A stretch of 64,000 nucleotides of DNA from an uncultured delta proteobacterium (GCA_963727835.1 CAVSIB010000016.1:20511-84510), one strand, 5' to 3'; numbered from the stretch's first letter, positions 11,852-52,603 are shown. Notes: generated by a model not told the origin, from the letters alone. Translations and numbers: made by a program.

Positions 11852-11917
11852 TTGAAATAATGTTGTTTGTGATAAGGGTAGGAGCAATTTATCACGTGAG
11901 AGAAAGGGGGTGATTAT

Positions 11918-12214: not shown

Positions 12215-12246
12215 CCGAAGAATAAATTCGTTTTCGGCAGTTTTAC

Positions 12247-12695: not shown

Positions 12696-12759
12696 AAATT
12701 GACAAAATCTCTCTGCCCCGTTCTCCTCCTTCCCTTAAAAACAAACATTGATGGCAAAA

Positions 12760-13059: not shown

Positions 13060-13242
13060 GTTTGCTTTTTTATTGCAAAAGTACCTCTTGCTGCCCTTTT
13101 AACGAAAGGAATTGAATTTTTTCTATCTTAGCAAAAAATCATTATTTGTAAAAAAATTATCTTCCTCTATTTCACATTACCATACAAAAAAAGGATAGAA
13201 ACAATCCCTGTGATTCATTAAAGATATACAACCCATATTGCT

Positions 13243-19989: not shown

Positions 19990-20086
19990 TGGTTATTTTT
20001 TGTTGCCAGCGGGAACTGCGTTAACGCCTGAAAGGAGTATCGGCCTATGCGGATTTTGGGTGAACTTTTCGCAGCGTTCACATCTT

Positions 20087-20473: not shown

Positions 20474-20479
20474 TTTATA

Positions 20480-21400: not shown

Positions 21401-23404
21401 TCACTGGTTGTCTTCATGGTATCGACCAGAGCCGATAGCTTCCCGCAAGAAAAAATCGAGGGTTTGCTCTACCGATTGCTCAAGCTCTATCGAAGGTTCC
21501 CACTGCAAGAGCTGCTTGGCTTTCCGAATGCTTGGTCTTCGGTGTTGCAGATCCTGATAACCACTTCCATAATATACTGAGCTTTCTACCTCCTGAAAAC
21601 CGGCAAATGGCGGGAAGTTTGACCGAAGGGGATGTTTTTCAAATTTTTTCACCAACATCTCTCCCAGCGCTTTGATGCTCGCCTCATTATCCGGGTTGCC
21701 AATATTGATGATCTGCCCATCACAACAGTGGTTAGGATTTTCGATAATGCGAAACAAGCATTCGATCCCGTCGGAAATATCGGTAAAACAACGTTTCTGA
21801 TTTCCGCCGTCAATGAGCTTAATCGGTGTTCCTTCTACCAGGTTAAGGATGAGTTGGGTAATAGCGCGAGAACTCCCGATCCGTGCCGAGTTCAAGCTGT
21901 CCAAGCGCGGCCCGATCCAATTAAAAGGACGAAAAAGTGTAAAATGAAGCCCTTCCTGCTGACCGTATGCCCAGATAACCCGGTCAAGCAATTGCTTGCT
22001 GCAGGAATATATCCAGCGCTGCATGCGGATGGGGCCTAACACTAATTTCGAAGTATCTTCATTAAACTCGCCTTCATCGCACATGCCATAAACTTCAGAC
22101 GTTGAGGGGAAAATAATCCGTTTTTTATATTTTACACAGTATCGGACAACTCTCAGATTTTGTTCAAAATCGAGTTCAAAAACTTGGAGTGGTCTGCGCG
22201 TATATTCGATGGGTGTGGCGATGGCCACGAGCGGGATGACTATATCGCATTTTTTTATGTGGTACTCGATCCATTCGCGGTGAATGGCAATATCCCCTTC
22301 ATGAAAGTAAAATCCTGGTTTTCCCAAAAAACGTTGGATAGAGTTGGATTGGAGGTCTAACCCGTGTACTTCATAGTTTCCGTTATCCAGAAGCTTTTCA
22401 CTTAAGGCGTTACCGATAAAACCATCCATTCCTAAAATGAGAATTTTTTTCTTTTTTACCATCTCGATGTATTTGCTAGTAGAAAGTCCAAAGGTCATCC
22501 CCTCAACAAGATTGAATTCACGGGCAAGCTGAGTGCCACCCATGTAAATACCATTTTCAGCCTGGCCGAAATCAACACGGATGGCGCCTTTCCCGCACTG
22601 AATCACCAAAGGATCAAGAGAAATAATGGTGCCGGGATTCGCTTTTTTTTCATAATCCGGCATTTCAGTAACCATCCAAAAAAAACATTTGCGGTCACCG
22701 ATATAGCTGAATGCGCCCGGATAAGGAATGGTCACCGCCCGCACCAGATTTTTTACCTGGGAGGCCGTGGCAGCCCAGTTGATTTCACCGTCTTTGGGCC
22801 TGCGTCCGCCATAATAGGTTGCCTGAGAATGCTCCTGAGGTTGGCGCGTTACCGTTCTTTTTTTTATCTGGGGAAGAATTTCATCGAGCAATTGGCGCGA
22901 AGCCACAACCATTTTTTCGTAAAGCGACCGCGCAGTGTCATAATCAGAAATTGGGATTCGCTTCTGACCGACAATGTCTCCATCGTCAGCCCGGGGAGTC
23001 ATGTAATGAAGCGTAACCCCGGTTTCTTTCTCACCGTTGATCAGCACCCAGTTTATCGGACAACGTCCACGGTACTTGGGAAGGAGCGATCCGTGAAGAT
23101 TGAAGCATCCCGCAGGTGGGATGTTAAGGATAGGAGGACGTATAAGGTAGCGGTAATAGAAAGAAAAAATAATATCCGGCGCGAGTTCTTGAATCTTTTT
23201 TACCCAGAGGGGGTGATTGATATCATCGGGTGCATAAACGAGAAGATTATGGCTCGCAGCGCATTCGGTAACCGAATTAAACCAAAGGTTTTCATGAGGA
23301 TCATCCTTATGGGTAAAAACCGCAGCAATCTCGAACCCGTTTCGCACCAGGGCTTCAATGCCAGCACAGCCGATGTTATGATAGGCAAAAACTACAGCTT
23401 TCAT
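21401..23404 (-). CDS. arnA: Bifunctional UDP-glucuronate decarboxylase / UDP-Ara4N formyltransferase ArnA
   Basis: 667 aa. N-terminal formyltransferase ([13 protein letters not shown]...SFYYRYLI...[33 protein letters not shown]). C-terminal SDR dehydrogenase ([12 protein letters not shown]...[13 protein letters not shown]...[11 protein letters not shown]...[19 protein letters not shown]...[18 protein letters not shown]). Near-collinear with E. coli ArnA. Confidence 0.95.
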
Positions 23405-23484
23405 TTTGTCACCTTAAAATTAATTTTAATCAAATTTAGCTCCATAGAGCTCTTTGCTTTAGCCTCATAATAAAAAAATATAGT

Positions 23485-25172
23485 TTATCCTCCTTCTCTT
23501 TTAATCTCCCAAGCCACAAGCTTCTTTTCAGAGTTCTTCTCCCAAGGGAAGATCTTTTCGTTCACGCTCGGTTGCCCCAAGGTTCCGGCAGGAAGCTCTC
23601 GGAACAGATACTTGAGGTCACGACGGGTCGAAATCAGCACTTTGGTGTCTTTCCCTGATCGGAGAAAATTTGTGACTGATTCAGGAGACTTCACTACCCG
23701 CACAAAGCCGGGGACATCCAAATAGAACAGAACAGTGGTCTCGATTTCGCGATAGAACGCGATATCTGTGGGCATGATATTCGTTACCTGGGTTTGTATC
23801 TCCCGAGCAAATGGTTTTTTTGTACGGTAATCTTCAAACCTTACCTGCTGCCAGCAGAAAAAGCCTCCCATGAGAATAGCTGCTGTGGCAACCAAACAAG
23901 CTGCCTTTTGATTGATCCCCGTAACCTTGACCAGCAGGTTGAGACGCCATCTTTTTATAATCCAGGGGGTTAAGGCAAAAAAGCTTACTATGAGCGTAGC
24001 AAGCTTAATACCCCCGGAACTACAAAATCTATGCGTTTTTGAAGAAAGAAGCAAATCGCCGGACTCAAAAACCCAAAAAGTACAATAAGGGCAAAGAGTC
24101 CTTCCTGGATGCCAAGCCCCAAACGTTTCCACCCTTCTTCGCCGACAGTCTTTAAATAAACTGCAACAATTAGAGCGCAGAAGGGGAGGATCGGGAGAAT
24201 GTAGTAACTCCTCCTTGAACCGGAAGCAGTAAACAAGAGAAAAATGAGAAGCGTGGCCTCTACAAGCCACCTAGTTTTGCCATCAAGGTTCTTTATCGAG
24301 GCAGTCGTTCTGAAAATCGCCACGAGAAGTAATGGGGTCCAGGGCAAAAAGAGGACAGGGAGATAATAGAAATACACATAAAAAGGTTCCACATGATCAA
24401 AGGGATGGAAAAAGCGCTGAATATTTTCCTGGAACACCAGGGCAAGTCCAGTTTCCTGATATGATCCTTGGGTCAGGTTAGCATAAATAAATGGAGCCAG
24501 ATAAAGGGCAAGGCCGATAATAAGGGACATAGCGTGGGAAGGCGAAAGGAGTGCCCGCCACCGCCGTTCTCGAAGAACATCCGGCAATAGCGCTACCATT
24601 GGCACTACCACTGCGGTAAGCCCTTTGGTTTGGGCGCCAATAAAGCAAATGAGATAAAAAACGAGATAGGTCAAAAAATTTTCTCTTCCCCGCCAAGTCC
24701 AATACCAGGCGATAGATAGGATGACCGTGGCAAGGTTTTCCATGTCTGCGGTCCCTGACCTTGACCAAAAAAGAAATCCAAATGCAGTAAGAAGAATCCA
24801 GCCGGATGTCCTTCCAGCTTCCTCTGACCATAATCTTCTCCCCAGAAACACTGTTGCCCAAAGCACCATTATGCCTGCAATTGCGCTTGGAAGCCTTACC
24901 GTCCATTCATTGAGTTTGCCCGTGAGGGCAGAGACTAGAGCGATAAGCCAGTAGGTAAGAAGGGGCTTGTCAAAGTAGGGTTCGCCATTGATAGTGGGGT
25001 GGAAGAAATTCCCCGAAAGAAACATCTCTCGGGTGACCTCAGCCCAACGGTCCTCGGAGGCCCAGAGGCCTCGGTTACCAAGTACCCAGAAAAGAAAAAA
25101 CAATGCAACTACCCAAAAGATGATATCCGAAATTCGTATCCGTACCTTTGCTTTTGAGACACTACTATCCAC
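23485..25172 (-). CDS. ArnT/PMT-family (GT83/COG1807) membrane glycosyltransferase, paralog 2; one frameshift
   Basis: N-terminal part (23988-25172) has SEDRWAEVTREMFLSGNFFHPTINGEPYFDKPLLTYW and multiple TM helices. The C-terminal part (23485-24270 frame) continues after a C5/G5 run at 24011-24015: reading ..DFVVPGV then GIKLATLIV.. joins if one G is inserted. Confidence 0.75.
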
Positions 25173-26106
25173 GATGGATCTTCCTCAAGAGGTATGGTGG
25201 TCGCCTCCTAACCGCCTGGAAAATTCTTCCGATGTACTCGCCCAGAACCCCGAGCGCAAAAAGCTGAGCACCGATAAAGCAGAAAAGTACGGCAAAGAGA
25301 GTAAATACTCCTTGTCCCGCCCATTGTGCCCCGTAATAAAATCGGAGAAACAGTATAAGCATCCCAAGCAGGAGACCCAGTATAGCAATCACGGTTCCTA
25401 CAAAGAAAAGAACCCGGAGAGGCAACAGAGAAAACCCAGTCACAAGATCAAGTTGCAAGCTGAAAAGCTTCAGGAGTGAGTACTTTGATTCTCCCGCACA
25501 TCTTTCTTTATGAAGAACAGGGATCTCTATTGGATTTCTCGCAAACAAGGTAGCTAAAGCAGGAATAAATGTCCGGTACTCAGGATTCGCCAGTATCGCT
25601 TCCACAACTTCCCGACTGTAACCCCGAAGCATACAACCGAAATCATCCAGAGATATGCCGGATATTTTTTTTACAAGCTTGTTCGTAAATTTCGATGCCC
25701 ATCTCCTAAAGAACGTATCTTGCCGGTTAATTCGGATGCTTCCCACGAGATCGTGCCCTTTGTTAAAGGCCTCGACTAACTTCGGAATCTCTTCCGGAGG
25801 ATTCTGCAAGTCAGCGTCGAGGGTAACGACAAACTCGCCTCGCGACTCAGCAAATCCAGCCAAAACCGCAGCGTGCTGTCCATAATTTCGGTTTAGCAGG
25901 ATCCCAATGACTTTACCCGGGTTCTGTTCGGCAGCCTCAGTAATAAGTTGGGCAGATCGGTCAATACTGCCATCATCCACCAGAATAATCTCGAAGGTCT
26001 TCCCCAGGTTGTTACAGGCTGTCAAGCAACGGCTGATAAGTTCCTTAAGGTTTGCCTCCTCGTTAAACGCAGGAATAACAACCGATAACAAAGGTGATGC
26101 ACTCAT
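25165..26106 (-). CDS. arnC: Undecaprenyl-phosphate 4-deoxy-4-formamido-L-arabinose transferase ArnC (GT2)
   Basis: LSVVIPAFNEE...IILVDDGS.DRS...NRNYGQHAAVLAGF...VVTLDADLQNPPEEIPKLV...GCMLRGYSR..TFIPALA...ESKYS, plus two C-terminal TM helices. Collinear with E. coli ArnC. Confidence 0.92.
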   Translation of the reverse strand: MSASPLLSVVIPAFNEEANLKELISRCLTACNNLGKTFEIILVDDGSIDRSAQLITEAAEQNPGKVIGILLNRNYGQHAAVLAGFAESRGEFVVTLDADLQNPPEEIPKLVEAFNKGHDLVGSIRINRQDTFFRRWASKFTNKLVKKISGISLDDFGCMLRGYSREVVEAILANPEYRTFIPALATLFARNPIEIPVLHKERCAGESKYSLLKLFSLQLDLVTGFSLLPLRVLFFVGTVIAILGLLLGMLILFLRFYYGAQWAGQGVFTLFAVLFCFIGAQLFALGVLGEYIGRIFQAVRRRPPYLLRKIHRG

Positions 26107-27254
26107 CGCTTTAACACCTCTTTTATTGTATCCACAACCTCATCCACATCTTCACTGGTCATGTCCGGGAAAAGCGGGAGAGAGCAGATCCGGTCGGAGT
26201 TCCACTCTGTGTTCGGCAGCATGCCCCGGCACGTGCCCATTGATTCCCGAAAATATTTTTGAAGGTGAACCGCCCGAAAATGAAGTCCGGTGCCGATATT
26301 TCTCTTTTTTAATTCTTCCATAAACGCATCCCGGGATAGGCCTGCCTTATCAATATTTAAGCGAATAATAAAAAGATTCCAGGAGTGCTTCATCGAATAC
26401 AATGGATCAGAGAGGGGCGTGATTTCATCAAGTTCGACAAGCCGTTCACGGTATCGCAGAGCTAATGCGGTTCGTTTTTTAATCAACTCCTCGAGCCGGG
26501 CCAGTTGTTTCAGTCCCAAAGCAGCAGCAATGTCGGTGAGGTTATACTTATATCCGGGGACAAGAACTTGGGCTTGGGGAGAACGGCCGCGGGTAAAACG
26601 ATCATACGCATCCACGCCCAGCCCGTGGAACTTCAGTTGGCGGATACCCTCCAGAAGCTCGGGGTTGTCCGAACAAAACATACCTCCCTCACCCGTGGTA
26701 ATATTTTTTATGGGGTGAAAAGAAAAAATTGCTGTTCCGGTTTGGCCAATACGGGTATCCTTATACTCAGTTCCCAACGCGTGGGCTGCATCATCAGCAA
26801 GAAAAATATTATTCCGTGCAGCGAGCCGGCGAATAGAATCTATATCCGCAGGAGCCCCAGCAAAATGAACCGGAACAATTAACCGTGTTCGCTCGCTCAG
26901 GCATTCCCTCATTGAATCACCAGATACCATCAACGTGTCCCGTTCAATATCCGCAAACACGGGTTTCGCACCTGCGAGGACAATAAGATTCACCGTAGAA
27001 ACCCAGGTCATTGACGGCGTAATAACCTCATCTCCCGGGCCGATACGTAAAGCGTGCAGCAAAAGATGCATGCCCGCAGTCGCGGAAGTGAGCGCTACCG
27101 CCCCCGAACAACCAACGTACTTGCAGAAATTCTCTTCAAAGTCAGTACATTTCACCCCGGTTGTTATCCATCCTGACCGCAGCACCCCGGCAATGGCGGT
27201 GATATCTTCCTCAGTAATGGAGGGACGCGAAAATGGCAAAAATTCTTTTCTCAT
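26103..27254 (-). CDS. arnB: UDP-4-amino-4-deoxy-L-arabinose--oxoglutarate aminotransferase ArnB (DegT/DnrJ/EryC1 family)
   Basis: EFLPFSRPSITEEDI...GWITTG...SATAGMHLLLHAL.IGPGDEVITPSMTWVSTVN...HFAGAPADID...SFHPIKNIT.GEGG...LKFHGLGVDAYDR...PGYKYNLTDIAAA...NTEWNSDRICSLPLFPDMT. Very close to E. coli ArnB. Confidence 0.95.
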   Translation of the reverse strand: MRKEFLPFSRPSITEEDITAIAGVLRSGWITTGVKCTDFEENFCKYVGCSGAVALTSATAGMHLLLHALRIGPGDEVITPSMTWVSTVNLIVLAGAKPVFADIERDTLMVSGDSMRECLSERTRLIVPVHFAGAPADIDSIRRLAARNNIFLADDAAHALGTEYKDTRIGQTGTAIFSFHPIKNITTGEGGMFCSDNPELLEGIRQLKFHGLGVDAYDRFTRGRSPQAQVLVPGYKYNLTDIAAALGLKQLARLEELIKKRTALALRYRERLVELDEITPLSDPLYSMKHSWNLFIIRLNIDKAGLSRDAFMEELKKRNIGTGLHFRAVHLQKYFRESMGTCRGMLPNTEWNSDRICSLPLFPDMTSEDVDEVVDTIKEVLKR

Positions 27255-27364
27255 CAGTTTTTTCGTTACCGTCTGTTTTTCAGAACTTTTTTAACTTCAA
27301 CGCTTTCTGCAGCGGTCATTTTTCTTTTTTAGCACACCGCCGTTGGGAGAAGCAATACTTATTT

Positions 27365-29158
27365 TCACTTCGCGCTAAGAGCGCTCCATGCATAAAGACA
27401 ATAGGCACGACGATCCCCGAGATGCCAGCATCGAAGTACCTGAAGCCGCGAGCGAACGTCATCCGGAAGATTGGGAAAAACCGCTTCGAACACGAGAAGT
27501 TTTCCCCGGGGAGTTGTCACTATATAACGGTCAAGTTCTTCAGAGGTAGCTATGTTCTTTGGCACAAAACCGGTGTCATACGGAATAACTCCCATCGTCG
27601 TTTCATCCAGACGATAGCCGATAAGCTCCGGGAAAGTGGCTTTCATAGTCTGGAGGTCTCTGGTAAAATAATGGAGATTTTTGACACCATCTCCCAAACG
27701 GAAAAACAGCGAGCCACCACACACAAAAAAAATAAAGACCAAACAAGCGCAGACCAATCCCACTCGTGGAGAGCCGCTTTTCCAGAGACGCATACCATAC
27801 GTAGTCAATCCTATACTCATGATCAAAAGTAACCCAAAGAGCATGAAAAACATTAACGCGGAAGGTTTGGCCTGCAACACCGCATGAAACCGGGCGAAAA
27901 AGCTCGCGCCGCCGAAATAGGCGACCGGCATGGCCACCAAAGTGGCTAAAACAGACAAAGCTAAAATCATAAGCATAATGACGTGCGTAGCGTGATCAAT
28001 TTTTTGCGAGTATTCCCTTTTAGCGGTTGCCGCAACCCACGCGCCGATAACGGCGCCAAGCGGGGCAAAGAGCGGCAAAAGGTAAAGCATGCGCTTGGTT
28101 GCTGGAAGACTTAGAAGAATAACGCCAATTGGAAATATTGAAGCAAGGGAAAATAACGCCGGACCATTCCATTCCGAAGGCCAGCATTTGCGCCAAAGCC
28201 AGTGACCAACCGCGGGAAGCGCAATCACCCACGGAATAATTTCGCTCGGAAATTGCAGGTAGTACCAGAAAGGGTGACGGTGCCCCCCTTCGTGGTATTG
28301 TCCGAATGCCGGGGAAATACGACCAAATACGTTGGGGCGTATAAAGCCGTCGAAAAGAAGCTCTTTGCCCCCCCGAAAATAAAGCATTAAAGGCCACCAC
28401 AGGCACAAAGCCAAAAAAATAACTATGCCCGGAATGTGCACCCACGAGCGAAAGAAGTTCCATCGCCGTGTTATCAGAGCAGCCACAAACAACGGTACCG
28501 CAACAAGACCCGGGCCAACCGGCCCTTTAACAAGGAAAGCAAGTCCGCCGGCAAGATAGATCACAAAAATGCCCCATGCGGAAGGCTTGATCGCTTTCTC
28601 ATCATCTAAATCTTTTTTACTGAAGACAGCAACCACAAAGCCCCAATAGCCTAGCATGACAAAAAGGGCAAGCCAGGGGTCAACCACCACCCTATGGAAA
28701 TGGTGATAAAAACCAGACAGGGTGGCCGTCACGATGGTAGCCATAAGGCCGGCAAACGGGTTTGCAATCCGCCTAGCCACATCAAATACCAAAATCAGCG
28801 TCATAACTCCGGCAAGAGCACTCGTGCTGCGCGCCACTCCGTCTGAAACCCCAAAGAGGTGGTACATTCCCGCCATGGCCCACCAGTAAAGCGGAGGTTT
28901 TTCCAGGAATGGTTTTCCTGCCAAGGTGGGAACAACAAAGTCGCCGCTCACCAACAGCTCCCGTCCAACCTCGGCATCGCGGGGTTCATCAGGAGTCCAG
29001 AGCGCATGATCAAAGACTCCGGTGAAAGAAATGAGAAGGCTTGCGGCAAGTGCCACCAAAAACGCCTGCCGATTAGTCAAGACAGTTAACTTCTCAACAA
29101 GGCTACCGATCAGTTTTAAAATCCAACTATTCATTATAACACTCGATTTTTTAAACAA
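27365..29158 (-). CDS. ArnT/PMT-family (GT83/COG1807) membrane glycosyltransferase, paralog 3
   Basis: 597 aa. PDEPRDAEVGRELLVSGDFVVPTLAGKPFLEKPPLYWW is followed by ~12 TM helices and a C-terminal soluble domain. Confidence 0.8.
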   Translation of the reverse strand: MFKKSSVIMNSWILKLIGSLVEKLTVLTNRQAFLVALAASLLISFTGVFDHALWTPDEPRDAEVGRELLVSGDFVVPTLAGKPFLEKPPLYWWAMAGMYHLFGVSDGVARSTSALAGVMTLILVFDVARRIANPFAGLMATIVTATLSGFYHHFHRVVVDPWLALFVMLGYWGFVVAVFSKKDLDDEKAIKPSAWGIFVIYLAGGLAFLVKGPVGPGLVAVPLFVAALITRRWNFFRSWVHIPGIVIFLALCLWWPLMLYFRGGKELLFDGFIRPNVFGRISPAFGQYHEGGHRHPFWYYLQFPSEIIPWVIALPAVGHWLWRKCWPSEWNGPALFSLASIFPIGVILLSLPATKRMLYLLPLFAPLGAVIGAWVAATAKREYSQKIDHATHVIMLMILALSVLATLVAMPVAYFGGASFFARFHAVLQAKPSALMFFMLFGLLLIMSIGLTTYGMRLWKSGSPRVGLVCACLVFIFFVCGGSLFFRLGDGVKNLHYFTRDLQTMKATFPELIGYRLDETTMGVIPYDTGFVPKNIATSEELDRYIVTTPRGKLLVFEAVFPNLPDDVRSRLQVLRCWHLGDRRAYCLYAWSALSAK

Positions 29159-29392
29159 TTATAGCAAATTTGTTTCAAAGACTCTTAAAAATATTATTAA
29201 TAACTCAATGAAGATTAACGGTGCATTAATTAAAAATTAATTTTTCTTAAGAAATATATACTACGAAAGGTTATCTCTGGTGAACTGATGCTCGTTACGG
29301 ATGCGAGAAAAAATTTTTGAATCACCTTCGCGGGTTATAACAGTCAATGGTATCGTTTTTTTATCTGAGCCATGCCTTTTCCCTTCCAACCA

Positions 29393-30981
29393 CTACCGAG
29401 CAACAAAATGCACCAAGAGCAGAGGTATGGCATTATTTTTTTCCGAACTCTCATGGCTGAGAACCACCTCAAACATGAGTTGATCTTTTCCTAAAGCCGA
29501 AAGCATTTCATAGATGTCTTGAGCGACAAGAAAGTAACCTTGTTTTCTGGAAGCCAGCGCGGAAACAACCGCCCGGGGTTGTGGATCAAGATCCAACCTT
29601 CGAAACTCGCGTCGCGCGTAGAAAGGAAGAGCGTCTTTCGTTTGAGTGAAATATATCGGTTCATTCCTGGGCACAAGGCGGTTAATGCCCTGGGCAAAGC
29701 TAACAATGCTCCTCCGAGCGCTCACCGGTGGTTCAATCCAGCCAGAAATCGTGATTATACATAGCACGCCGGTTAAAACGAAAAGTTTGAAAGCCCTTTG
29801 AGGGCGTGAAAAAAGAAAACAGGAACCTATGGATGCTGGAATGGCAAGACAGCAGCCCACGGCAAGTGCCACCGTGAGGCTCGCAATTCCGCGGGAATAG
29901 ATAGAGAAACCGACCCCGAAAGAGAAGAGCACACAGCACAGTGAAAGCAACCCAGCCAAAACCCAGCCAAAACGATCTATATTCCTGCTCTCAATTATTT
30001 TCAAAAACTGCCTCAGCAGCACAGCCTCAATCACGCCCACGGAAGGAATCACCGGCAAGAGGTGATGGATCGGCTGTTTGGCACACGCTGCGAAGAAAAC
30101 GAAGTTTCCGGTCAACCACAAGGAACAAAACCGCAGTCGTGACCAGCTTTGCAATTTTCGTCCCCAGGCCGGCAAAAAAAGTGCCCCAATGCCGAAAATA
30201 CTCCAGGGGTAAGTGAACCACGGCCAATTGCCCAGGTGTTGGAAATAACTCCAGCCATTATGCTCCTGGCTCGGAACCACAGACCGTTTTACGTCAGCAA
30301 TCACCTGCAGCAGAAAGTCTTTTTCCATAACCAAAGCATTATCGGCCAGGCAAATGCGAACCCTATCACCATGAGCAGTCCCCACCACGGTCGCATCCGC
30401 ACCCCCAGCTGCCATTGATGCGACACCCATAGTTCCAGCACAATAGGTATACTCACAATAACCAGTGCCAACGGCCCCTTGAACAAGCAGGCTAACGACA
30501 GGCTAACATAAAACCCCCACCACGAAGCTGACCACGCTCGGCCCTCCTTTTTCCATACCAGCCACAACAGCAGAGCAAGGCCTGTAAAAAAGCTCAGCAA
30601 TAAATCTTGGCTCGGCGAATGACATTCGGAAATAAAATAAGGTGTGACGGCCAAAATCAGGGCGGCAATCCGTCCGGTTTCCCTGTCAAAAAGTCGGCGC
30701 GTTATCGCCCAGGCCACAAAGATAATCCCCAGGCCGGCGAGCGCAAACGGCAGTCGGAAGCCCAACTCATTTCGTCCCAGCAGCCGCATGCTTCCCACCA
30801 CGATCCAATCCGCAAACGGGGGTTTCAAAATCCGCGGTTTACCTTCCAATTGCGGCAACAGCCAATGGCCGTTGTCAGCTACATCCGCCGCCGTGCCGGC
30901 GATTCTCCGTTCACGCACATCCGCGATATCGCGCGACCCAAGAAAACAGAACACCGATACGATGCAGACGATGCCAACCAA
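29393..30981 (-). CDS. ArnT/PMT-family (GT83/COG1807) membrane glycosyltransferase, paralog 4; one frameshift in 30301-30430
   Basis: N-terminal ORF (30301-30981) has RERRIAGTAADV...HWLLPQLEGKPRILKPPFADW. The C-terminal ORF (29393-30430) is in another frame. Homopolymers at 30320-30324 and 30402-30406 lie in the overlap. This stretch is visibly more GC-rich than the neighbouring arn genes. Confidence 0.7.
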
Positions 30982-31641
30982 CAGGTCAGCATATTGTGCC
31001 CAGAACAGATATGTCTGCGCGTTCTTTCTGAGAAACTCGCAAAGCCTGCGATTTGGCGCAGCGGGGCAGAAATCTAATAAAAGCTTGCTGTTTAGCTGAC
31101 AAAAGAATATCTAACCAATGTTTATAAAAATGAATAAAAACTATTTTTATGCTGGCAACCTCAGAACTATACTTATGAATCTGGCGAGATACCAGGAATT
31201 AAGGGGACCACCACTAAAGATAACATTTTACGATGTCTTTTCTTCTTCCGTTATTTTTTAAAAGAAGCATGCGGTAGAGCATCAGCAAAATCAGCGATAG
31301 CAACAAACTAAAAAAAACCTCCCAGGACTGCAACCACCAAAGACTCCTTTAGAATTTCTGGTCAATAAGTCCGAATATATCTATTTATGATAGTGTACAT
31401 GAATTAAAAATTCAAATCCTTTTTTTACCTATTGCTCCCTGTAACATTCTAAAGATTTTTTAAATTAAATTTTTTTAATGGTGAGAACTTTTTTAATTAC
31501 TACTTGTCACCAAAGTATGCTAAGTTGACTTTTTTTACTTTCTTTCGATTAAAGTGATTATGAAAAAATTTTTAAAAAAGATCCAAGAGATAATTTAGTT
31601 TTACGGCACTTAAAAAACGCGGAACTTCAGGAGTATAATCT

Positions 31642-32532
31642 ATGTCGGTTGTTATACGGTTTTCTTCGCCAAATCTTGTTGCCGCTGGTTCAGTCGCCGC
31701 GAGTGTTGAAGAAAAGCTTTATTTTCAAGGGACAAACGGCCGGGCTGTTCTTTTAGTACATGGGCTTACCGGCTCGCCTTATGAGATGAAATATTTGGCG
31801 CATTTTTTTCATGAACGCGGCTATACAGTGTCGTGTCCCAGGCTGGCAAATCATGGACAGCCGCTGGATGTGTTAAAACAGACAAAATGGACTGAATTTT
31901 ATGATTCAGTCCGTAAAGCTTTTTTTGATTTAACATCCGGCCATGATAAGATTTTTGTCGCCGGATTATCGATGGGGGCGTTGTTATCGCTGGCCCTGGC
32001 TGAAGAGTATCCGGATGCGGTCGCCGGAGTAAGCTGTTTGTCACCGACTTTATTTTATGATGGCTGGAACGTTCCCTGGTCGCGAATCTTTTTGCCGCTG
32101 GTCTGCGCTACGCCGCTTAAAGATTTTTTTTATTTTAAAGAAGAACCTCCGTATGGTATTAAAAACGAAAAAATACGCCAGTTAATCCATAGGTATTACA
32201 GCCGGGCAACTTTGGATAACATGAAAGAAGTGGCAAGGCACGGTTATCCGTATTTTCCAGTGGTGTTATTAAACCAGCTAAAGTTATTGATCGTTTTTTT
32301 GCGTAAACGTTTTAATAAGATAATTACTCCGGTGCAGATGATCCAGGCTAGATATGATGACATGACCAGCCCTCGTAATGCACGGTTTATATATGACCGG
32401 GTCAGTTCAAAGAAAAAAGAGATCGTGTATTTGGAAGATTCGTATCATGTGATTACGGCTGATCAGGAGAAAGATAAGGTGGCTTATGTGATGGATGAGT
32501 TTTTTGGGAACATCCGAGGAGCCAGTTCATGA
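31642..32532 (+). CDS. Alpha/beta-hydrolase fold esterase/lipase-like protein
   Basis: VLLVHGLTGSPYEM, nucleophile elbow GLSMGA and a downstream D/H region. Its stop overlaps the next start (ATGA). Confidence 0.75.
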   Translation: MSVVIRFSSPNLVAAGSVAASVEEKLYFQGTNGRAVLLVHGLTGSPYEMKYLAHFFHERGYTVSCPRLANHGQPLDVLKQTKWTEFYDSVRKAFFDLTSGHDKIFVAGLSMGALLSLALAEEYPDAVAGVSCLSPTLFYDGWNVPWSRIFLPLVCATPLKDFFYFKEEPPYGIKNEKIRQLIHRYYSRATLDNMKEVARHGYPYFPVVLLNQLKLLIVFLRKRFNKIITPVQMIQARYDDMTSPRNARFIYDRVSSKKKEIVYLEDSYHVITADQEKDKVAYVMDEFFGNIRGASS

Positions 32533-33254
32533 TGCCGAAAAAAGCTGATGATCAGGAACTGAAACTTCTTTTGGAAGCAGGCAACCTTGATATTTCCGCC
32601 TGTGGGGTATTTTTTGATTTTGATAACACTATTACTTCCTATGACGTGCTGGACGAGATAATCAAGCGGTTTGCTGTAGACAGCGAGTGGGAGGAATTTG
32701 AAAAGGCCTGGGCTGAAGGAAAGATTGGTTCGCGTGAATGCCTTAAGGGGCAGTTAAAGTGTTTGCGGGCAACAAAAGACGATCTGATCAAGTATGTTTC
32801 TGAGGTAAAGGTCGATCCATATTTTAGCAATATAATTAACTTATTAGTGGTTGCCGGGATTGAGCCGGTACTAACCAGCGATAGTTTTACTTTTGTGATA
32901 AACCAGATATTGCGCTGTAACGGGATCAAAGGGGTCAAAGTCTACGCCAACCAATTGCGGTTTTCAGGTAAAAATCTGATCCCGGTGTTTCCGCTTTCCG
33001 ACCCGCTTTGCAGTAAATGTGCGCATTGCAAGAGAAACCGTTTGTCTGACAGCCGAAGCCGCTCGAGATTCCTGGTCTATGTCGGCGATGGGCGTTCGGA
33101 TATTTGTCCGGCTCAGGCCGCGGATTTGGTATTTGCGAAAGACAGCCTGATCCGTTATTGTGCGGATATGAATAAGCCTTGCGTTGAGTTTAAAGACCTC
33201 AGCGAAGTATATAACCATTTAAGGAGGCAGCCCAATGGCACAAACGTTAAGTGA
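32529..33254 (+). CDS. HAD-superfamily phosphatase, MtnX-like (DxDxT, with a CxxC..C cysteine cluster)
   Basis: FFDFDNTIT (motif I), GDGRSD (motif IV) and SKCAHCKRN. Resembles 2-hydroxy-3-keto-5-methylthiopentenyl-1-phosphate phosphatase-type HADs. Translationally coupled to its neighbours. Confidence 0.65.
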   Translation: MMPKKADDQELKLLLEAGNLDISACGVFFDFDNTITSYDVLDEIIKRFAVDSEWEEFEKAWAEGKIGSRECLKGQLKCLRATKDDLIKYVSEVKVDPYFSNIINLLVVAGIEPVLTSDSFTFVINQILRCNGIKGVKVYANQLRFSGKNLIPVFPLSDPLCSKCAHCKRNRLSDSRSRSRFLVYVGDGRSDICPAQAADLVFAKDSLIRYCADMNKPCVEFKDLSEVYNHLRRQPNGTNVK

Positions 33255-34623
33255 TAAAGAATTGCTTGAATTAGAAGCTAAATATTGTTCCTGGGGTGAT
33301 ACGGTCCACTATACCGAAAAGCTGGATATTTTTGAACGCTCAGAAGGTATTTATCTGTATGATAATCACGGTACGCAGTATTTGGATCTTCAGATGTGGT
33401 ATTCAGCGGCGAATTTCGGTTATAAAAATTCGCGGCTTAATGAGGCGTTAATAAAACAGATCAACACCTTGCCGCAGTTGGCTTGTCAATATTTGCATAA
33501 AGAAAAGATCTTGTTGGCGGCTAAGATAGCCCAGAATATGGAACAAACCTTCAATGTAAAAGGCAGAGTCCATTTTAACGTCGGCGGCGCTTCAGCTGTC
33601 GAAGATTCTATGAAACTAGTCCGTAATCATACCGGCAAGACGCTTGCCTTCGCGTTTATGGGCGGTTATCACGGCCGGACCTTAGGGGTATCCGCGATAA
33701 CTTCCAGCTATCGTTATCGTGAACGTTACGGCCATTTTTCCGATCGAGCAAATTTTATTCCGTATCCTTATTGTTTTCGTTGTTTCTATGAAAAAAAGCC
33801 GGAGTCTTGCGGCTTATACTGTTTAAAGCAATTTGAAAAACTTTTTGAGACGGAATACTACGCGGTAGTGAATAAGAAAAACAGCAATTGCGAATTCGGA
33901 GCGTTTTATGTCGAAGCGTTGCAGGGTACCGGCGGATATATCGTGCCGCCGATGAATTATTTTAAAGAACTCAAGAAGATACTGGACCAGTATAAGATCC
34001 TTTTTATTGATGACGAGGTCCAGATGGGTTTTTATCGTACCGGTAAATTATGGGCGATCGAACATTTTGGCGTAACGCCGGATGTTTTGGTTTGCGGCAA
34101 ATCTCTGACTAACGGGCTTAATCCGCTATCCTGTATCTGGGCAAAAGAAGAATTGATCTCGCCGAAAGTATTCGGGCCAGGTTCTACGCATTCTACATTT
34201 TCTTCGAACTCTTTAGGCACCACGGTCGGGTTAGAAGTCATGAAGGTGATCGAAGAATCGGATTTCGCGGTATCGGTTCCGGCTAAAGGAAAATATTTTG
34301 TCGAACGGTTAAAACAATTGCAGAAAAAATACCCCTATATCGGGCATGTCGAAGGTTTGGGCTTGGCGATCCGTGTGGAGATCTGCGAAAAAGACGGCTA
34401 TAAGCCGAGCAAAAAACTTACTGACGCGATATTTGACATCGGCTTAGGCGGCGAGTTGACTGCCGGCGGTAAAAAACGCGGATTGATCCTGAATGTCGGC
34501 GGGTATTATAAAAACGTGTTTACTTTGGTACCGTCATTGTACATCACTGAGAAAGAAATCGATACCGCGATAGAGCTGTTTGAAGAAGCTCTGCAAAAAG
34601 GTATCGCTCAAGTCTGCACTTAA
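33235..34623 (+). CDS. Class-III (fold type I) PLP-dependent aminotransferase
   Basis: GGYHGRT, FIDDEVQMGFYRTGKLWA and lysine context VCGKSL. Its 5' end overlaps the HAD gene by 20 nt. Confidence 0.8.
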   Translation: MAQTLSDKELLELEAKYCSWGDTVHYTEKLDIFERSEGIYLYDNHGTQYLDLQMWYSAANFGYKNSRLNEALIKQINTLPQLACQYLHKEKILLAAKIAQNMEQTFNVKGRVHFNVGGASAVEDSMKLVRNHTGKTLAFAFMGGYHGRTLGVSAITSSYRYRERYGHFSDRANFIPYPYCFRCFYEKKPESCGLYCLKQFEKLFETEYYAVVNKKNSNCEFGAFYVEALQGTGGYIVPPMNYFKELKKILDQYKILFIDDEVQMGFYRTGKLWAIEHFGVTPDVLVCGKSLTNGLNPLSCIWAKEELISPKVFGPGSTHSTFSSNSLGTTVGLEVMKVIEESDFAVSVPAKGKYFVERLKQLQKKYPYIGHVEGLGLAIRVEICEKDGYKPSKKLTDAIFDIGLGGELTAGGKKRGLILNVGGYYKNVFTLVPSLYITEKEIDTAIELFEEALQKGIAQVCT

Positions 34624-34690
34624 GGCGATATGCTGAAAAAGGAAACTCATCACTTACTTTTACGGTTATAGCGCTTTTATTAGCTACTGA

Positions 34691-34992
34691 TTTGGCGGAA
34701 ATGGCCGCGGAAGCATTGTTTACACAGATAAATTTCACGACTATGATTCTCTGGTATTCTGTGGTTACCGCCACATCAAGATTGACCATGGCAAGTACTT
34801 CGCTTCCGGCAAAGTGTATATTAATGACCTTGAAGGGTTCTGGACTTTCGCCAAAGAACGCCTAATGAAATATCATGGAGTTTCACAAAAGAAATTTCCC
34901 TTGTAGTTAAAAGAGCTGGAATTCCATTATAATAACAGATACAAAAATATGTTCGCTTTATTAACTCAATTACTGGCTGAGTTCGAACCAAA
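34691..34992 (+). pseudogene. IS1595-family (ISXO2-like) transposase C-terminal remnant with an internal stop
   Basis: Translation GSIVYTDKFHDYDSLVFCGYRHIKIDHGKYFASGKVYINDLEGFWTFAKERLMKYHGVSQKKFPL*LKELEFHYNNRYKNMF matches the conserved C-terminus of IS1595 DDE transposases. The N-terminal ~200 aa is not present. Confidence 0.7.
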
Positions 34993-35132
34993 TCTTTTAT
35001 AATCACCTAAAATTTGATATTGCATACAAAAATGAAATTCAGCGGCGTGGTTGAGTAGGTATAAAGGGGAAATCCCAGGTGCTATAATTTTCCGGTAAAG
35101 CTTTGTCAGCATCGGCATGAATAGAATCGAAA

Positions 35133-36020: not shown

Positions 36021-36878
36021 GTGCACCAAAAATCGTGTGAATTAAAAAACCAGTATGCCATCAGTTGCAAAGAGCTGACATTCGCTCTCATCATCGTAGG
36101 GCTTTCATGTGCAGTGCGAATTCTTTATTCACTGCATTGCCAGCTCTGTAGCGATGAGCCGCAGCATCTTCATGTGATCTGGGGCTGGTATCATGGCCTT
36201 GTGCAATATCGGGATATCTTTGATAATCACATGCCGCTCTTTCATATACTCCTGAGCCCGCTTTTCTCGGCTATCGGCGAGCGGCCCACCCTCATGATCT
36301 GGATGCGTCTGGCGATGCTACCGCTCTTTGCCGTAATCATTTTTTGCATTTACGTGATTGGGGCGTCTGTTTTCAGCAAGCGGGTTGGTCTCTGGGCGGC
36401 AGTGTGGACAACGGTTTTTCCATCAATGAGCCTGTTTATTGAATTCCGAACCGACATTCTCTGGGCACTGTGCTGGTTTTCCTGTATCGCGATTCTGGTA
36501 AGCGGCCGGCTGACCATACGGCGTAGTGCGGTTGCCGGATTTTTTGCCGGATTGACGTTCGCAACCTCTCTTAAAACATCATTTCTGGCAGTCGCGTTAG
36601 CCGCTTCAATTGTCGCAACCATCCTCATAACCCGTAAATCTTACCATTGGGCCGGCCAAGCTTCTCAATTGATCCTAAAAGGTTGCGCATTTATTGTTTG
36701 CCTCTTAATTCCCCCTGCGGTGCTCGTTGCTTATTTTTACGCCCGCGGTGCTGCTGATTCGATGTATTACTGCGTGGTTGCGCATAATCTTGTCTTAGAA
36801 CGCGAATTTTTTTTTCGACATTTAATATCCATGAGCTATAGCAATATCTGTTTCATTGGTCTGTTCGGTAGGTCTTAA
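36021..36878 (+). CDS. Polytopic membrane protein, probable N-terminal portion of a GT-C (ArnT/PMT-like) glycosyltransferase
   Basis: ~8 TM helices. The first loop has DEPQHLHV...YRDIFDNHMPLF, resembling the GT-C DEx motif. Its 3' end overlaps the next ORF by 23 nt in a different frame. Confidence 0.55.
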   Translation: MHQKSCELKNQYAISCKELTFALIIVGLSCAVRILYSLHCQLCSDEPQHLHVIWGWYHGLVQYRDIFDNHMPLFHILLSPLFSAIGERPTLMIWMRLAMLPLFAVIIFCIYVIGASVFSKRVGLWAAVWTTVFPSMSLFIEFRTDILWALCWFSCIAILVSGRLTIRRSAVAGFFAGLTFATSLKTSFLAVALAASIVATILITRKSYHWAGQASQLILKGCAFIVCLLIPPAVLVAYFYARGAADSMYYCVVAHNLVLEREFFFRHLISMSYSNICFIGLFGRS

Positions 36879-37716
36879 GCGACTTGAACAGTCCGATACA
36901 AAGATGCTCCGGAAAACTTTCATCATGCTTCTGGCAGGGTTCTCGTTTGCAATGCTGCAACTCTGGCCTGTTCTGACTCAGCAGGACTATGCTGTCATCC
37001 TGCCGGCATTTCTGGTGGTTGGGGCTGCGCTAATCGAGTTTGCACAGGTATCCGCTTTAAAGCGCCGGCCTTTTTTACCTCTTCGCCAGCTCTTTCCGGT
37101 TATCATGGCCATCCAACTTGGTATGATGGCGATCTTTGCGCCCTGGCACAGCGCTCTGACATATAACCTTCAGCAATGGCGTGATGTGTTGCGCATGACC
37201 GATCCCGATCAAACGGTAATGGATCTTAAGGGTGAATTAATTTTCAGACCCCGGCCGTACTATTATGTTGTCGAAACATTCACCAGTAAAAGGATCCACC
37301 AAGGCCTGCTGAAAGATGATATTCCAGAGCAGATGGTAGCCCGCGGAACGTGTGTTGCAAACCATCCGATGGGCTGGGAAGGCCGCATGCCCGCGCGGAC
37401 CGGCGAATTCATAAAACGCAATTACGTTTCTGTTGGAACGCTGCTGGTGGCCGGGAAAGTCCTTGAAAGGACCTCTCCAACCGATCGCATTGAATTTGAA
37501 ATTGAATTGCCGGCACAGTATTCTCTCGTTTCCGCATCTGGACCAGCAACGGGTCTGCTCGATAACGAGCCGGTTGGGCAAACGGTTTTGCTCAAACCTG
37601 GACGACATTTTTACCAGCCTCGCACAACGGAAACTAAATTTGCTCTCGTGTGGTCACAGGCTCTTGAGCGAGGTTTCTGGCCCGTGAAAATAGTAAAACG
37701 GAATCCCCAGCCATGA
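36856..37716 (+). CDS. Membrane-anchored protein with C-terminal soluble domain; possibly the C-terminal half of the preceding GT-C gene
   Basis: Three N-terminal TM helices then a ~190-aa hydrophilic domain. The ORF-track start is TTG at 36856; the first ATG is at 36904. The stop overlaps the PIG-L gene start (ATGA). Confidence 0.5.
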   Translation: MVCSVGLKRLEQSDTKMLRKTFIMLLAGFSFAMLQLWPVLTQQDYAVILPAFLVVGAALIEFAQVSALKRRPFLPLRQLFPVIMAIQLGMMAIFAPWHSALTYNLQQWRDVLRMTDPDQTVMDLKGELIFRPRPYYYVVETFTSKRIHQGLLKDDIPEQMVARGTCVANHPMGWEGRMPARTGEFIKRNYVSVGTLLVAGKVLERTSPTDRIEFEIELPAQYSLVSASGPATGLLDNEPVGQTVLLKPGRHFYQPRTTETKFALVWSQALERGFWPVKIVKRNPQP

Positions 37717-39180: not shown

Positions 39181-40645
39181 TTAGTTTTTCTTAATGGTTG
39201 GTGAAATCCCGATAGGTTTTGTGGGAAGCGTAACGGTAAACGTGGTCCCCTGATGTAACTGACTTTTTACGTCAATGGTTCCGTGATGAGCCTTTACAAT
39301 CCATTGACAAATACTTAAGCCAAGACCTACTCCGCCCGATAGCCGGGAGCGGGATGTATCTACCCGGTAAAATCGGTCGAATATATGGGGTAAATCATCG
39401 CTGGGTATTCCTATGCCCGTGTCTTTTAGGACAACTGTTACCTGGCCTTTTCCCGGTTGTACTAGCAGGCTAATATTCCCTCCATTAGGGGTATATTTTA
39501 TGGCATTATCAATGAGGTTGCTGAAAAGCTGTTTCAGCTTTATACTGTCGAAATTTATCAGTACCTCCTCGGGTGCCGAAAGGGTAAAACTAATTTTTTT
39601 CTGCATTACCACAATATTGAAGGCCTCATAGAGTTCTTTAAGCAGTTCGGAAAAATTTAGATTTTCAATCTTGAGGCTTGCCTTGCCTTCGTCTGCTTGA
39701 GAGAGAATGAGGAGATCATTAACGAGCTTGATCAAGAAATCAAGCCGTTCGAGGTTATTAGTCAGAGCCTCTTGGTAGTCTTCTGAAGACCGTTTTCGAG
39801 AAAGCAAAACTTCAGTCTCCCCCTTAAGCGAAGCGAGCGGCGTGCGCAACTCATGGGCGGCATCACCAGTAAACCGGGAGAGTTTTTCAAAAGATTCTTC
39901 CAGACGTTCCATCATCTGATTGATAGTCGTGACCAGCCTATCCAGATCATCGCCAGTCCCTTGGAGGGGTAGTCGTTCGCTCAGGTTGTTGGCCGTTATT
40001 CGTTTGGTAGCTTCCGTTATTTTATCAATAGGCTTCAGGGATTTGCCGGGATAAGAACCACCCCCCGATGGAGCCAAAAAACAAAGCCAGAAAAAATGCG
40101 ATAAAAAGATGTTCCCGAAAATTTTCGATGCTTTTGCGCATGGTGCGGAGATGGGTTGCGATTTGAACAACATATTTTAATTCCCCACCTTCCCTATAAA
40201 AATAAGTGCAGAGGCGAAAAGGGGTTGTCCCGTGGTGATAAACATTCAATGTTGTATTAATAGGTTTTTGATAACTAACATGATCTAAAAAAACTTTGGG
40301 GAAAGAAAGATCCGACAATGTTGCGGAGGAAAAAATGATCTTACCTTTTTGATCGAGCACCCGGAAAGCGATCGGGTAATACCTGTGATTAGAAACAACC
40401 TTCTCATAGTCTTTTAACTGATCATTGAAACTTCCTGATTTTTTAATTCCCTCCTTTATGATTTCTTGCGCCTCATCCGCAAGCATCCGGTCAATCTCCT
40501 TAAGGAGATTCCGACGAAGGCGATAGTCTAAAAATCCAAAGATGAGAATTATAATGGTCAAGAACGTTATCGTGTACCATAACGCCATCCTTACATCGAG
40601 TCGTTGATAAAACCTAATCCTTCTCTTTAAAAACATAACCAACAC
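39181..40645 (-). CDS. Sensor histidine kinase (2 TM + periplasmic loop, HisKA, HATPase_c), one frameshift
   Basis: The N-terminal ORF (40025-40645) has two TM helices flanking a ~150-aa loop. The C-terminal ORF (39181-40173) has H-box AAHELRTPL and the N/G1/G2 boxes (NLIDNAIKYT, DTGIGI, GGVGLGLSI). A C6 run at 40061-40066 sits in the 40025-40173 overlap. Confidence 0.8.
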
Positions 40646-52586: not shown

Positions 52587-52603
52587 TCTATTAGAGGAGG
52601 CTC

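Follow-up and report, generated by a model that had tools for sequence, protein, structure and literature searches.

The 64,000-nt stretch of DNA analyzed here (GCA_963727835.1 CAVSIB010000016.1:20511-84510; hereafter the window) is filed under an uncultured delta proteobacterium and carries three overlapping plus-strand genes. The first (31642-32532) encodes a 296-residue α/β-hydrolase, called Hyd4 here and identified from its open reading frame (ORF) and a match to Pfam Hydrolase_4. The second (32529-33254) encodes a 241-residue HAD-IB phosphatase (ORF call, PF06888, and TIGR01489), and the third (33235-34623) encodes AT3, a 462-residue class III pyridoxal 5'-phosphate (PLP) enzyme (ORF call and Aminotran_3). 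Direct reading of the hydrolase–phosphatase junction (...GAGGAGCCAGTTCATGATG...) places the hydrolase stop codon TGA within a 4-nt ATGA overlap at 32529-32532. The phosphatase–AT3 junction (...AAGGAGGCAGCCCAATGGCA...GTGA) contains a 20-nt overlap at 33235-33254, with the AT3 ATG at 33235 and the phosphatase TGA at 33252-33254. Shine-Dalgarno sequences precede each start: AGGAG lies 8 nt upstream of the Hyd4 ATG, GAGGAG 8-11 nt upstream of the phosphatase, and AAGGAGG 7 nt upstream of AT3. An initial annotation, made from the sequence alone, had read the overlaps as evidence of an operon; the gene coordinates and both overlaps agree exactly, and the three genes form one translationally coupled operon. 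Relative to a 91%-identical locus (L091), the ratio of nonsynonymous to synonymous substitution rates is 0.19 for Hyd4, 0.39 for the phosphatase, and 0.11 for AT3, so all three genes are under purifying selection. The closest homologs of all three proteins derive from Candidatus Omnitrophota metagenome-assembled genomes, and the window organism is a Candidatus Omnitrophota bacterium.

The initial annotation had proposed neighborhood co-occurrence as the deciding test, and the cassette proved to be conserved in Omnitrophota, on metagenomic contigs, and on plasmids. Using the phosphatase alignment as the query against one genome per species, we retrieved relatives from at least 479 species-level genomes. 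Eighty loci were fetched for neighborhood analysis and read by homology mapping combined with de novo ORF clustering. In 52 of the 67 loci with room for it, the ORF that follows the phosphatase is AT3, mostly overlapping or abutting, and Hyd4 lies directly upstream of the phosphatase in 33 of 71. Among the 38 loci flanked by 8 kb or more on each side, all three genes were present in 24, an EamA pair in 25, an arginase-fold gene in 17, a DegT gene in 16, a GNAT gene in 14, and a ketoacyl synthase (KAS) gene in 14. The commonest arrangement is that of the window itself: hydrolase, phosphatase, aminotransferase. The cassette is not a chance juxtaposition.

Beyond the trio, several protein families recur in these neighborhoods. 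An arginase-fold protein of ~309 residues (a weak match, E = 6e-7, with one marginal PDB sequence match at E = 0.42) is encoded directly downstream of AT3 in many loci and in all rhizobial operons. Two half-size EamA proteins weakly resemble ArnE/ArnF (34-36 bits against NCBIfam, below cutoff), and models of the MdtI/MdtJ spermidine exporter match weakly as well. Further partners are a FemAB-like GNAT (PF04339/PF13480), for which a PDB sequence search returned no solved-structure match; a 406-residue DegT-family aminotransferase, whose PDB matches to inosose and sugar aminotransferases amount to generic resemblance only; and a FabF-like KAS. In four Omnitrophota loci (L025, L028, L042, and L046), an OmpR-type response regulator–histidine kinase pair (RR-HK) is encoded directly upstream of Hyd4, the phosphatase, and AT3. 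Some Omnitrophota loci (L017, 11735-15661; L033; L049; L040) have an embedded KAS-FabG-acyl carrier protein (ACP)-FabZ-KAS set together with a CrtI-like flavoenzyme/oxidase. The ACP, bearing a DLGxDSM motif, lies inside a 260-nt gap, and the layout is reminiscent of the AcpXL cluster for very-long-chain fatty acids in rhizobia.

The same cluster also occurs outside Omnitrophota. Three metagenomic contigs (L095, L096, and L097) encode AT3 orthologs that are 59-64% identical and share both signature motifs and neighbors. The order on L095 is phosphatase-AT-arginase-EamA-hydrolase-GNAT-EamA, followed by a kinase, a sigma-54 regulator, and MipA; L096 and L097, like the window, carry the trio without the arginase-fold gene. 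A translated search of PLSDB retrieved 34 plasmids of cultured bacteria with AT3 orthologs at 57-63% identity (Rhizobium, 16; Agrobacterium, 10; Bartonella, 5; and Xanthomonas, Sinorhizobium, and Phyllobacterium, 1 each). On bat-derived Bartonella plasmids (L101, from Bartonella sp. HY406, 8956-14959), the ortholog is accompanied by the GNAT and arginase-fold genes only, with neither phosphatase nor hydrolase, and adjoins genes for an O-acyltransferase of the MBOAT type and an SGNH protein resembling AlgX. The RefSeq annotation of the plasmid operon reads RR-HK-MtnX-like phosphatase-aminotransferase class III-arginase family-EamA-(fatty acid desaturase)-α/β hydrolase-GNAT-EamA-(cyclopropane fatty acid synthase family), followed by a convergent MipA/OmpV gene; on the alphaproteobacterial plasmids, the RR-HK pair is on the upstream side and MipA/OmpV on the downstream side. 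In a single case, Agrobacterium fabrum pAt2788a, genes for a phosphoethanolamine–lipid A transferase (eptA) and a diacylglycerol kinase (dgkA) come next after the cluster. The rhizobial cluster resides on accessory, often conjugative plasmids and is patchily distributed. In Xanthomonas sacchari, the phosphatase and aminotransferase genes sit beside those for KAS, ACP, GNAT, arginase-fold, DegT, two EamA, hydrolase, and HlyD/ATP-binding cassette (ABC) exporter proteins. Across Omnitrophota, Alphaproteobacteria, and Gammaproteobacteria, the phosphatase-to-aminotransferase order, with the hydrolase adjacent, is strongly conserved.

We examined each of the three proteins against curated families and solved structures. 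Hyd4 matches Hydrolase_4 (PF12146; E = 1.5e-19, 70.7 bits against a cutoff of 27). Its catalytic triad, consisting of S110 in a GLSMG elbow, D239/D240, and H269, is kept across 54 orthologs. The best PDB matches are 5xks (Bacillus monoacylglycerol lipase) and 1tqh (Est30), each aligned in two stretches that leave a longer lid; this lid is enlarged relative to both enzymes and conserved (FYDGW...PYG). By family membership, Hyd4 is predicted to be a cytosolic α/β-hydrolase of the Est30/monoacylglycerol lipase type.

The phosphatase matches Put_Phosphatase, the PHOSPHO1/2 family (PF06888; E = 2e-14), and scores 97.1 bits on TIGR01489 (MtnX-like HAD-IB; cutoff, 81.55), the sole curated cutoff passed in NCBIfam scans of the cassette. 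The initial description of a DxDxT phosphatase with a CxxC..C cluster holds. The motifs D30/D32/T34, S117-D118, K168, and G186-D187-G188-x-S190-D191 are invariant in 22 orthologs, as is the cysteine cluster C161xxC164xxC167-K168, which immediately precedes the motif III lysine. In the PDB, MtnX (2fea) is the best solved relative, and phosphoserine phosphatases match as well. These features place the protein in HAD-IB, within the MtnX/PHOSPHO/phosphoserine phosphatase group. A narrower identity is another matter: scores for MtnX proper are 81.2 bits against 292 (NF007103) and 74.6 against 303.2 (TIGR03333), the families that co-occur in the 80 loci include no mtn genes, and the SerB model gives 41.9 bits against a cutoff of 144.15 (TIGR00338). 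Characterized HAD-IB relatives, including SerB, PHOSPHO1/2, and the plant phosphoethanolamine/phosphocholine phosphatases, hydrolyze small amino-alcohol phosphates.

AT3 matches Aminotran_3 over residues 32-453 (PF00202; E = 4.6e-77, 259.8 bits), and alignments show that it retains the Schiff-base lysine (K289), the PLP-binding residues D260 and Q263, and the HGR148 motif. It is therefore a member of PF00202, in a class III-fold subfamily that has no name; homolog records routinely annotate it as GABA (γ-aminobutyrate) aminotransferase-like. At the position of the arginine in the C-terminal "R..PPL" strand, AT3 has T430, invariant in 180 orthologs, and V428 stands where the nearest sister subfamily has a shifted arginine ("GYYGNR," two residues earlier). 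GabT R398, OAT R413, and the ArgD equivalent align to T430 and bind the α-carboxylate of glutamate/2-oxoglutarate. Scores are far from those of the 2-oxoglutarate-dependent ω-aminotransferases (GabT, 207 bits against 507; ArgD, 226 against 410; OAT, 186 against 378). A PbfA/ETNPPL-type lyase is not indicated by score either (PbfA NF049939, 235.9 bits against 525), and the match to human ethanolamine-phosphate phospho-lyase (6tor) is 133 bits, no better than that to GabT. No NCBIfam equivalog cutoff was reached by AT3, its orthologs, or its nearest sister subfamilies, and its PDB neighbors include class III-fold racemases and one phospho-lyase. Each cassette protein belongs to a well-known superfamily and none to one at the named equivalog level, in keeping with the first impression that the combination matches no named pathway.

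Sequence conservation sets AT3 apart from its operon partners. It is 73-76% identical across Omnitrophota, and the window protein is 60-63% identical to its proteobacterial counterparts (Rhizobium, Xanthomonas), compared with 33-39% for the phosphatase and hydrolase. AT3 is also enzymologically notable: the class arginine is missing, yet identity between phyla is 60%, versus ~35% for the operon partners. The orthogroup is marked by an invariant N-terminal YCS[WHY]GDTVHY motif and an insertion of ~10 residues (GL.G.L...GKK). In a library clustered at 50% identity, it has one full-length representative, and the next relatives are 35-44% identical. A cysteine motif spanning AT3 residues 180-196 (C180xxC183...C192xxxC196) is common to AT3 and sister subfamilies at 32-37% identity, whereas the corresponding segment is cysteine-free in archaeal structures; the motif may form a structural metal site.

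Two sets of AT3 relatives merit separate description. A paralogous class III group, 35-39% identical to AT3 and also without the arginine (L092, 10001-16742; L093/L094, 8943-16355), consists of lone genes beside phage-type integrases, large SIR2_2(-nSTAND) proteins, and an FRG/PDC-S15 protein; one such paralog is translationally coupled to a NodU/CmcH-type carbamoyltransferase. This group appears to sit in a defense-island setting, although its PLP enzyme has no PADLOC model and no phage copies of the SIR2_2-linked group were found. A defense role for the cassette itself was rejected: none of the three proteins is covered by a PADLOC model, and only the paralog group adjoins SIR2_2 and integrase genes. 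The second set, P0254 (a cluster of 11 members, 36-37% identical to AT3), has lost the Schiff-base lysine (GKS to SDL) and the GGYHGR motif, and is probably a non-catalytic pseudoenzyme.

Comparison with L091 reveals how the cassette came to its present surroundings. An IS1595-family transposase remnant lies just downstream of AT3 (34694-34999, plus strand, by tblastn), with one in-frame stop and the N-terminal half missing. Frame 3 of 34628-34996 corresponds to the C-terminal half of the IS1595 DDE domain (PF12762 positions 76-153 of 153, E = 3e-12); a partial domain with an in-frame stop marks a remnant, not an intact element. The remnant is present as a single copy in the window, is found in L087 (a contig 98.8% identical to the window, with the same arrangement), and is absent from L091. 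Between AT3 and the remnant lies the fossil 5' end of an EamA (ArnE/F-like) half-transporter gene (34630-34722, plus strand), ~30 codons long, frameshifted, and cut at the insertion sequence (IS) junction. Here, the window reads ...SSLTFTVIALLLATDLAEMAAE where L091 has MLKKKTSSLTFTVIALLLATDLAAMAAELFFKKG..., and the fossil codons join the IS1595 fragment directly. Nucleotide homology between the window and L091 is limited to 31641-34722, from 1 base before the Hyd4 ATG to 99 nt past the AT3 stop. Downstream of AT3, L091 has two EamA genes and a weakly GT2-like 274-residue ORF; next comes the PMT_2 gene, which in the window is upstream and divergent. Because homology ends at 34722 and the PMT_2 gene has changed position, we conclude that an IS event cut the cluster short within the EamA gene and turned the cassette around with respect to PMT_2, and the recombination scar that the initial annotation saw in the stop-containing fragment is upheld. 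The placement of the trio between two lipid-carrier aminosugar modules, one of the 4-amino-4-deoxy-L-arabinose (L-Ara4N) type and one of the galactosamine/glucosamine type, is a lineage-specific outcome and not the ancestral context. The flanks themselves are as first described, between two undecaprenyl phosphate-linked aminosugar modules; the conserved partners of the cassette are different genes. An ArnT-like GT-C gene is near the cassette in both arrangements. In L091, the region upstream of the cassette (3722-5315) encodes a short NeuB-like protein, a CMP-sugar-type cytidylyltransferase, and a phospholipase D-family protein where the window has PMT_2.

The ~540-bp AT-rich region noted ahead of the cassette is a divergent intergenic spacer (~31105-31641) running from the minus-strand PMT_2 gene to Hyd4, with a GC content of 0.33-0.34, compared with 0.42-0.46 in the cassette and ~0.5 in the flanks. 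It lies outside the mobile block, since homology to L091 begins at 31641. A search of the 540-nt leader and the cassette surroundings against Rfam gave no family match at E ≤ 1, and promoter-like sites in the leader/cassette region were not above shuffled expectation. A riboswitch or other RNA element in the leader was rejected, given the Rfam result and the presence of only low-complexity A/T repeats. The upstream flank, on the minus strand, is an Arn-like module with genes for a DegT/ArnB-like protein, a GT2, an ArnA-like formyltransferase–epimerase fusion, a deacetylase, and several PMT_2/ArnT-like proteins; these Arn-like genes form a module separate from the cassette (18331-31104). The downstream flank is a GT2–membrane protein–PIG-L module.

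Several further observations concern these flanks. The 18331-31104 module combines 4-5 ArnT/PMT_2-type GT-C paralogs with a single ArnB-ArnC-ArnA-ArnD-like set and a small EamA-like ORF (~20099-20404), an unusually high GT-C paralog number that places many lipid-carrier-dependent transferases in one locus. Relative to L087, single-base indels at 24011, 30323, 36836, and 40041 split four window genes: two PMT_2/ArnT-like genes (23485-25172 and 29393-30981), a gene for a 563-residue membrane protein (36021-37716), and a histidine kinase gene (39181-40645). The indels, from which the cassette genes are free, could be strain-specific pseudogenization of envelope genes or assembly errors. Osmoregulated periplasmic glucan genes of the MdoG/MdoH type lie 15 kb downstream of the cassette (50393-54715), and L092, a locus of the AT3 paralog group, also adjoins MdoG/MdoH; this proximity is probably coincidental.

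Given this body of evidence, we tentatively propose that the cassette is the soluble enzymatic core of a widespread, uncharacterized, two-component-regulated envelope-remodeling cluster that makes an amino-alcohol or amine head group. From the observed operon, its conservation, and its partners, we infer the following chemistry. AT3 would aminate a phosphorylated carbonyl compound lacking an α-carboxylate, such as a ketone or aldehyde resembling dihydroxyacetone phosphate (DHAP) or a sugar phosphate, to give an amino-alcohol phosphate; such a substrate is proposed because the α-carboxylate arginine is missing and the distal-anion arginine (HGR) is kept. The HAD-IB phosphatase would then strip the phosphate, either directly or once the amine is attached, and the lipase-type esterase would cleave off or pass on an acyl group esterified to the same intermediate or to its lipid acceptor. 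Where the cluster is complete, the GNAT would N-acylate or aminoacylate the amine, the arginase-fold protein would trim it, and the EamA pair would flip it for display on a membrane lipid or glycan, where it would lower the negative surface charge under the control of the sensor system. In the window, the IS1595 event took out the EamA genes, and the trio is now found among lipid-carrier modules. An aminated, phosphorylated head group, in an amino-lipid or aminosugar, was the role first suggested for the trio; that suggestion fits the cluster context and stays a conjecture from sequence. Serine and histidine biosynthesis follow the same transaminase-then-phosphatase logic. In Campylobacter jejuni, the serinol-phosphate decoration of the capsule depends on transamination of DHAP by Cj1437, after which Cj1438C links the amine to the capsule and Cj1435 takes off the phosphate (PMC12096443), and RtxA-dependent serinol synthesis has the same transamination logic (PMC3222319). 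Linkage to RR-HK, MipA/OmpV, and eptA-dgkA points, by analogy, to a regulated surface-charge response: MipA/OmpV barrels and two-component systems sense polymyxins and cationic peptides in Pseudomonas aeruginosa and Vibrio cholerae (PMC10936184; PMC12012098).

Several points weigh against this proposal. The 64-kb window encodes none of the GNAT, arginase-fold, EamA, and DegT partners of the cluster, nor its fatty-acid enzymes, OmpR-type two-component system, or MipA/OmpV, so the trio must be able to function either by itself or together with the modules on its flanks. In some Omnitrophota loci, the phosphatase and arginase-fold genes occur with AT3 absent, and at least five AT3-less loci (L071, L079, L084, L085, and the L058 type) have the DegT enzyme; the phosphatase and AT3 therefore do not have to work on successive intermediates. 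The chemistry is pinned by neither a curated family nor a solved structure, and the proposed substrate is deduced from residues and context. AT3 may be a lyase, mutase, racemase, or decarboxylase instead of a transaminase, because the missing arginine is what a transaminase ordinarily uses to hold its amino-acid donor. The role given to the esterase is the weakest link, a guess, and the connection to cationic-peptide resistance is one of gene neighborhood only.

The missing arginine is also compatible with a catabolic salvage of lipid head groups, in which the esterase would deacylate a lysolipid, the phosphatase would free an amino alcohol such as ethanolamine, and the PLP enzyme would remove the amine as a transaminase or as an ETNPPL/PbfA-type phospho-lyase. 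The monoacylglycerol lipases that are the best solved relatives of Hyd4, the PHOSPHO1/2-family match of the phosphatase, the 236 bits of AT3 on the PbfA ammonia-lyase model along with the 133 bits on 6tor, and the trio standing alone in the window, L096, and L097 all suit such a route. However, the recurrent partners are of biosynthetic or export type (KAS, ACP, FabG, FabZ, GNAT, DegT, and flippase-like EamA), with no recurrent glycerophosphodiesterase or uptake system among them. Nor do the PbfA/ETNPPL scores exceed those for GABA and ornithine transaminases, and a phosphatase and a phospho-lyase acting on one substrate would be redundant. We consider salvage unlikely.

The arginase-fold partner invites a different pathway, a polyamine or arginine-derived amine route for surface protection. 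Here, the arginase-fold enzyme would make a diamine from a guanidino compound, AT3 would transaminate the diamine or an ω-amine, the EamA pair would export the product in the manner of MdtIJ, and the GNAT would acylate it. This would account for the arginase-fold gene directly after AT3 in many loci and all rhizobial operons and for the weak MdtI/MdtJ matches of the EamA halves; in addition, class III enzymes typically use the ω-amines of ornithine, putrescine, and GABA, and AT3 retains the HGR arginine for a distal anion. It leaves the phosphatase without a role, though, and is at odds with the arginase-free trios of the window, L096, and L097. The arginase-fold match is itself weak, and the putrescine aminotransferase model is not among the best AT3 matches. 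The chance that this route is correct appears small.

The fatty-acid and exporter genes of the proteobacterial clusters raise the further prospect of a secreted N-acyl amine or amino-alcohol, N-acyl-serinol-like or zeamine-like, made by a small biosynthetic cluster and not destined for the envelope. In Xanthomonas, the cluster has its own KAS and ACP along with a GNAT and two aminotransferases, and an HlyD/ABC exporter is encoded next to it; rhizobial operons include fatty-acid tailoring enzymes; and a plasmid-borne, patchily distributed cluster would suit a specialized product. Set against this are the linkage to MipA/OmpV, eptA-dgkA, ArnT-like and GT2 genes, and ArnE/F-like half-transporters, as well as the very high conservation of AT3 across phyla, which is unusual for specialized metabolism. 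A secreted metabolite is accordingly improbable. Very improbable is the notion of housekeeping enzymes adjacent by chance (methionine salvage with MtnX and a transaminase, a SerC/SerB-like serine pathway, or ArgD/GabT), for despite the MtnX-like name of the phosphatase, its matches to SerB models, and the usual GABA aminotransferase-like label of AT3, the MtnX, SerB, ArgD, and GabT equivalog scores are far under their cutoffs, mtnW, mtnK, mtnA, mtnB, mtnD, ser, and arg genes are not among the co-occurring families, AT3 is without the α-carboxylate arginine those reactions require, and the rhizobial cluster rides on accessory plasmids; methionine salvage and SerC/SerB roles were rejected on scores and gene context. 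Omnitrophota are reported to lack PLP biosynthesis (PMC10066038), and a connection was considered, given that the HAD family includes a PLP phosphatase and that AT3 could be mutase-like; we set it aside, as the cluster is an accessory plasmid trait in rhizobia.

Returning to the envelope-remodeling proposal, a broader version is more doubtful: the cluster could be a horizontally mobile envelope-decoration pathway, shared by Omnitrophota and plant-associated Proteobacteria, that answers cationic peptides or other envelope stress, in which AT3, as a new class III PLP enzyme independent of α-carboxylate substrates, would supply a phosphorylated amino-alcohol or amine head group to be dephosphorylated, acylated, and flipped as a new chemical modification of surface charge. 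Surface-charge remodeling with L-Ara4N, phosphoethanolamine, glycine, or lysyl-phosphatidylglycerol is the main route of resistance to polymyxins and host antimicrobial peptides. The seven-to-nine-gene cluster shares the regulatory and architectural hallmarks of that remodeling (an OmpR-type sensor pair, MipA/OmpV, ArnE/F-like half-transporters, and, on one Agrobacterium plasmid, neighboring eptA-dgkA) and appears uncharacterized; in the literature, we found no characterization of the gene combination, of PF04339/DUF482, or of "MtnX-like." If the broader version is true, a new surface-charge chemistry would stand beside those four. The presence of the cluster on conjugative plasmids of cultured, tractable Rhizobium and Agrobacterium makes it testable in the laboratory despite its uncultured Omnitrophota source.

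Among the closest known systems, the Arn (PmrHFIJKLM) pathway, which modifies lipid A with L-Ara4N, is similar in its amination, its transient or permanent N-acylation (GNAT here, ArnA formyltransferase there), and its metal-dependent amidohydrolase step (arginase-fold here, ArnD there), as well as in the small EamA/SMR-like half-transporter pair, OmpR-type two-component control, and the adjacent ArnT-like GT-C gene of the window and L091. In contrast to Arn, the aminotransferase is of class III and not the DegT/ArnB type, the HAD-IB phosphatase and lipase-type esterase have no Arn counterpart, and the conserved set lacks a UDP-sugar dehydrogenase/decarboxylase, with GT2 and GT-C not among the conserved partners; the cassette proteins match no ArnA/B/C/D/E/F/T model. 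At the level of single enzymes, the phosphatase shares the four HAD motifs and the cysteine cluster before the motif III lysine with MtnX (2-hydroxy-3-keto-5-methylthiopentenyl-1-phosphate phosphatase), SerB, and PHOSPHO1/2 and passes TIGR01489, but differs from MtnX in its equivalog scores far under cutoff, in the lack of a methionine-salvage context, and in its class III PLP partner. AT3 shares the fold, Schiff-base lysine, D..Q, and HGR with GABA, ornithine, and acetylornithine aminotransferases and with archaeal class III-fold racemases (7vno, 9wqz, and 9wrf) at 30-35% identity, and is distinguished by threonine for the "R..PPL" arginine, valine at the "GYYGNR" site, the YCS[WHY]GDTVHY motif, the ~10-residue insertion, and extreme cross-phylum conservation.

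Among envelope amine systems, CarRS-OmpV with AlmEFG in V. cholerae likewise places a two-component system and a MipA/OmpV barrel beside an amine-adding operon. LpiA/AtvA (MprF/LpiA with AcvB/AtvA) pairs a FemX-fold transferase with an α/β-hydrolase, as in the cluster described here. The class III PLP enzyme, HAD-IB phosphatase, and arginase-fold protein are absent from AlmEFG and MprF/LpiA, whereas an AlmE-like carrier-protein ligase is absent here. The likeness to C. jejuni HS:2 capsule amidation and to RtxA is one of logic, in which a keto-phosphate is transaminated to an amino-alcohol phosphate, a polymer of the cell surface receives the amine, and a phosphatase takes off the phosphate (PMC12096443; PMC3222319). 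Attachment in C. jejuni is by an ATP-dependent amidoligase and not a FemAB-like GNAT, and the esterase, EamA pair, and arginase-fold enzyme are not part of that system. With none of the specific enzymes of either precedent, the cluster resembles Arn in its architecture and Cj1437/Cj1435 in its chemical logic.

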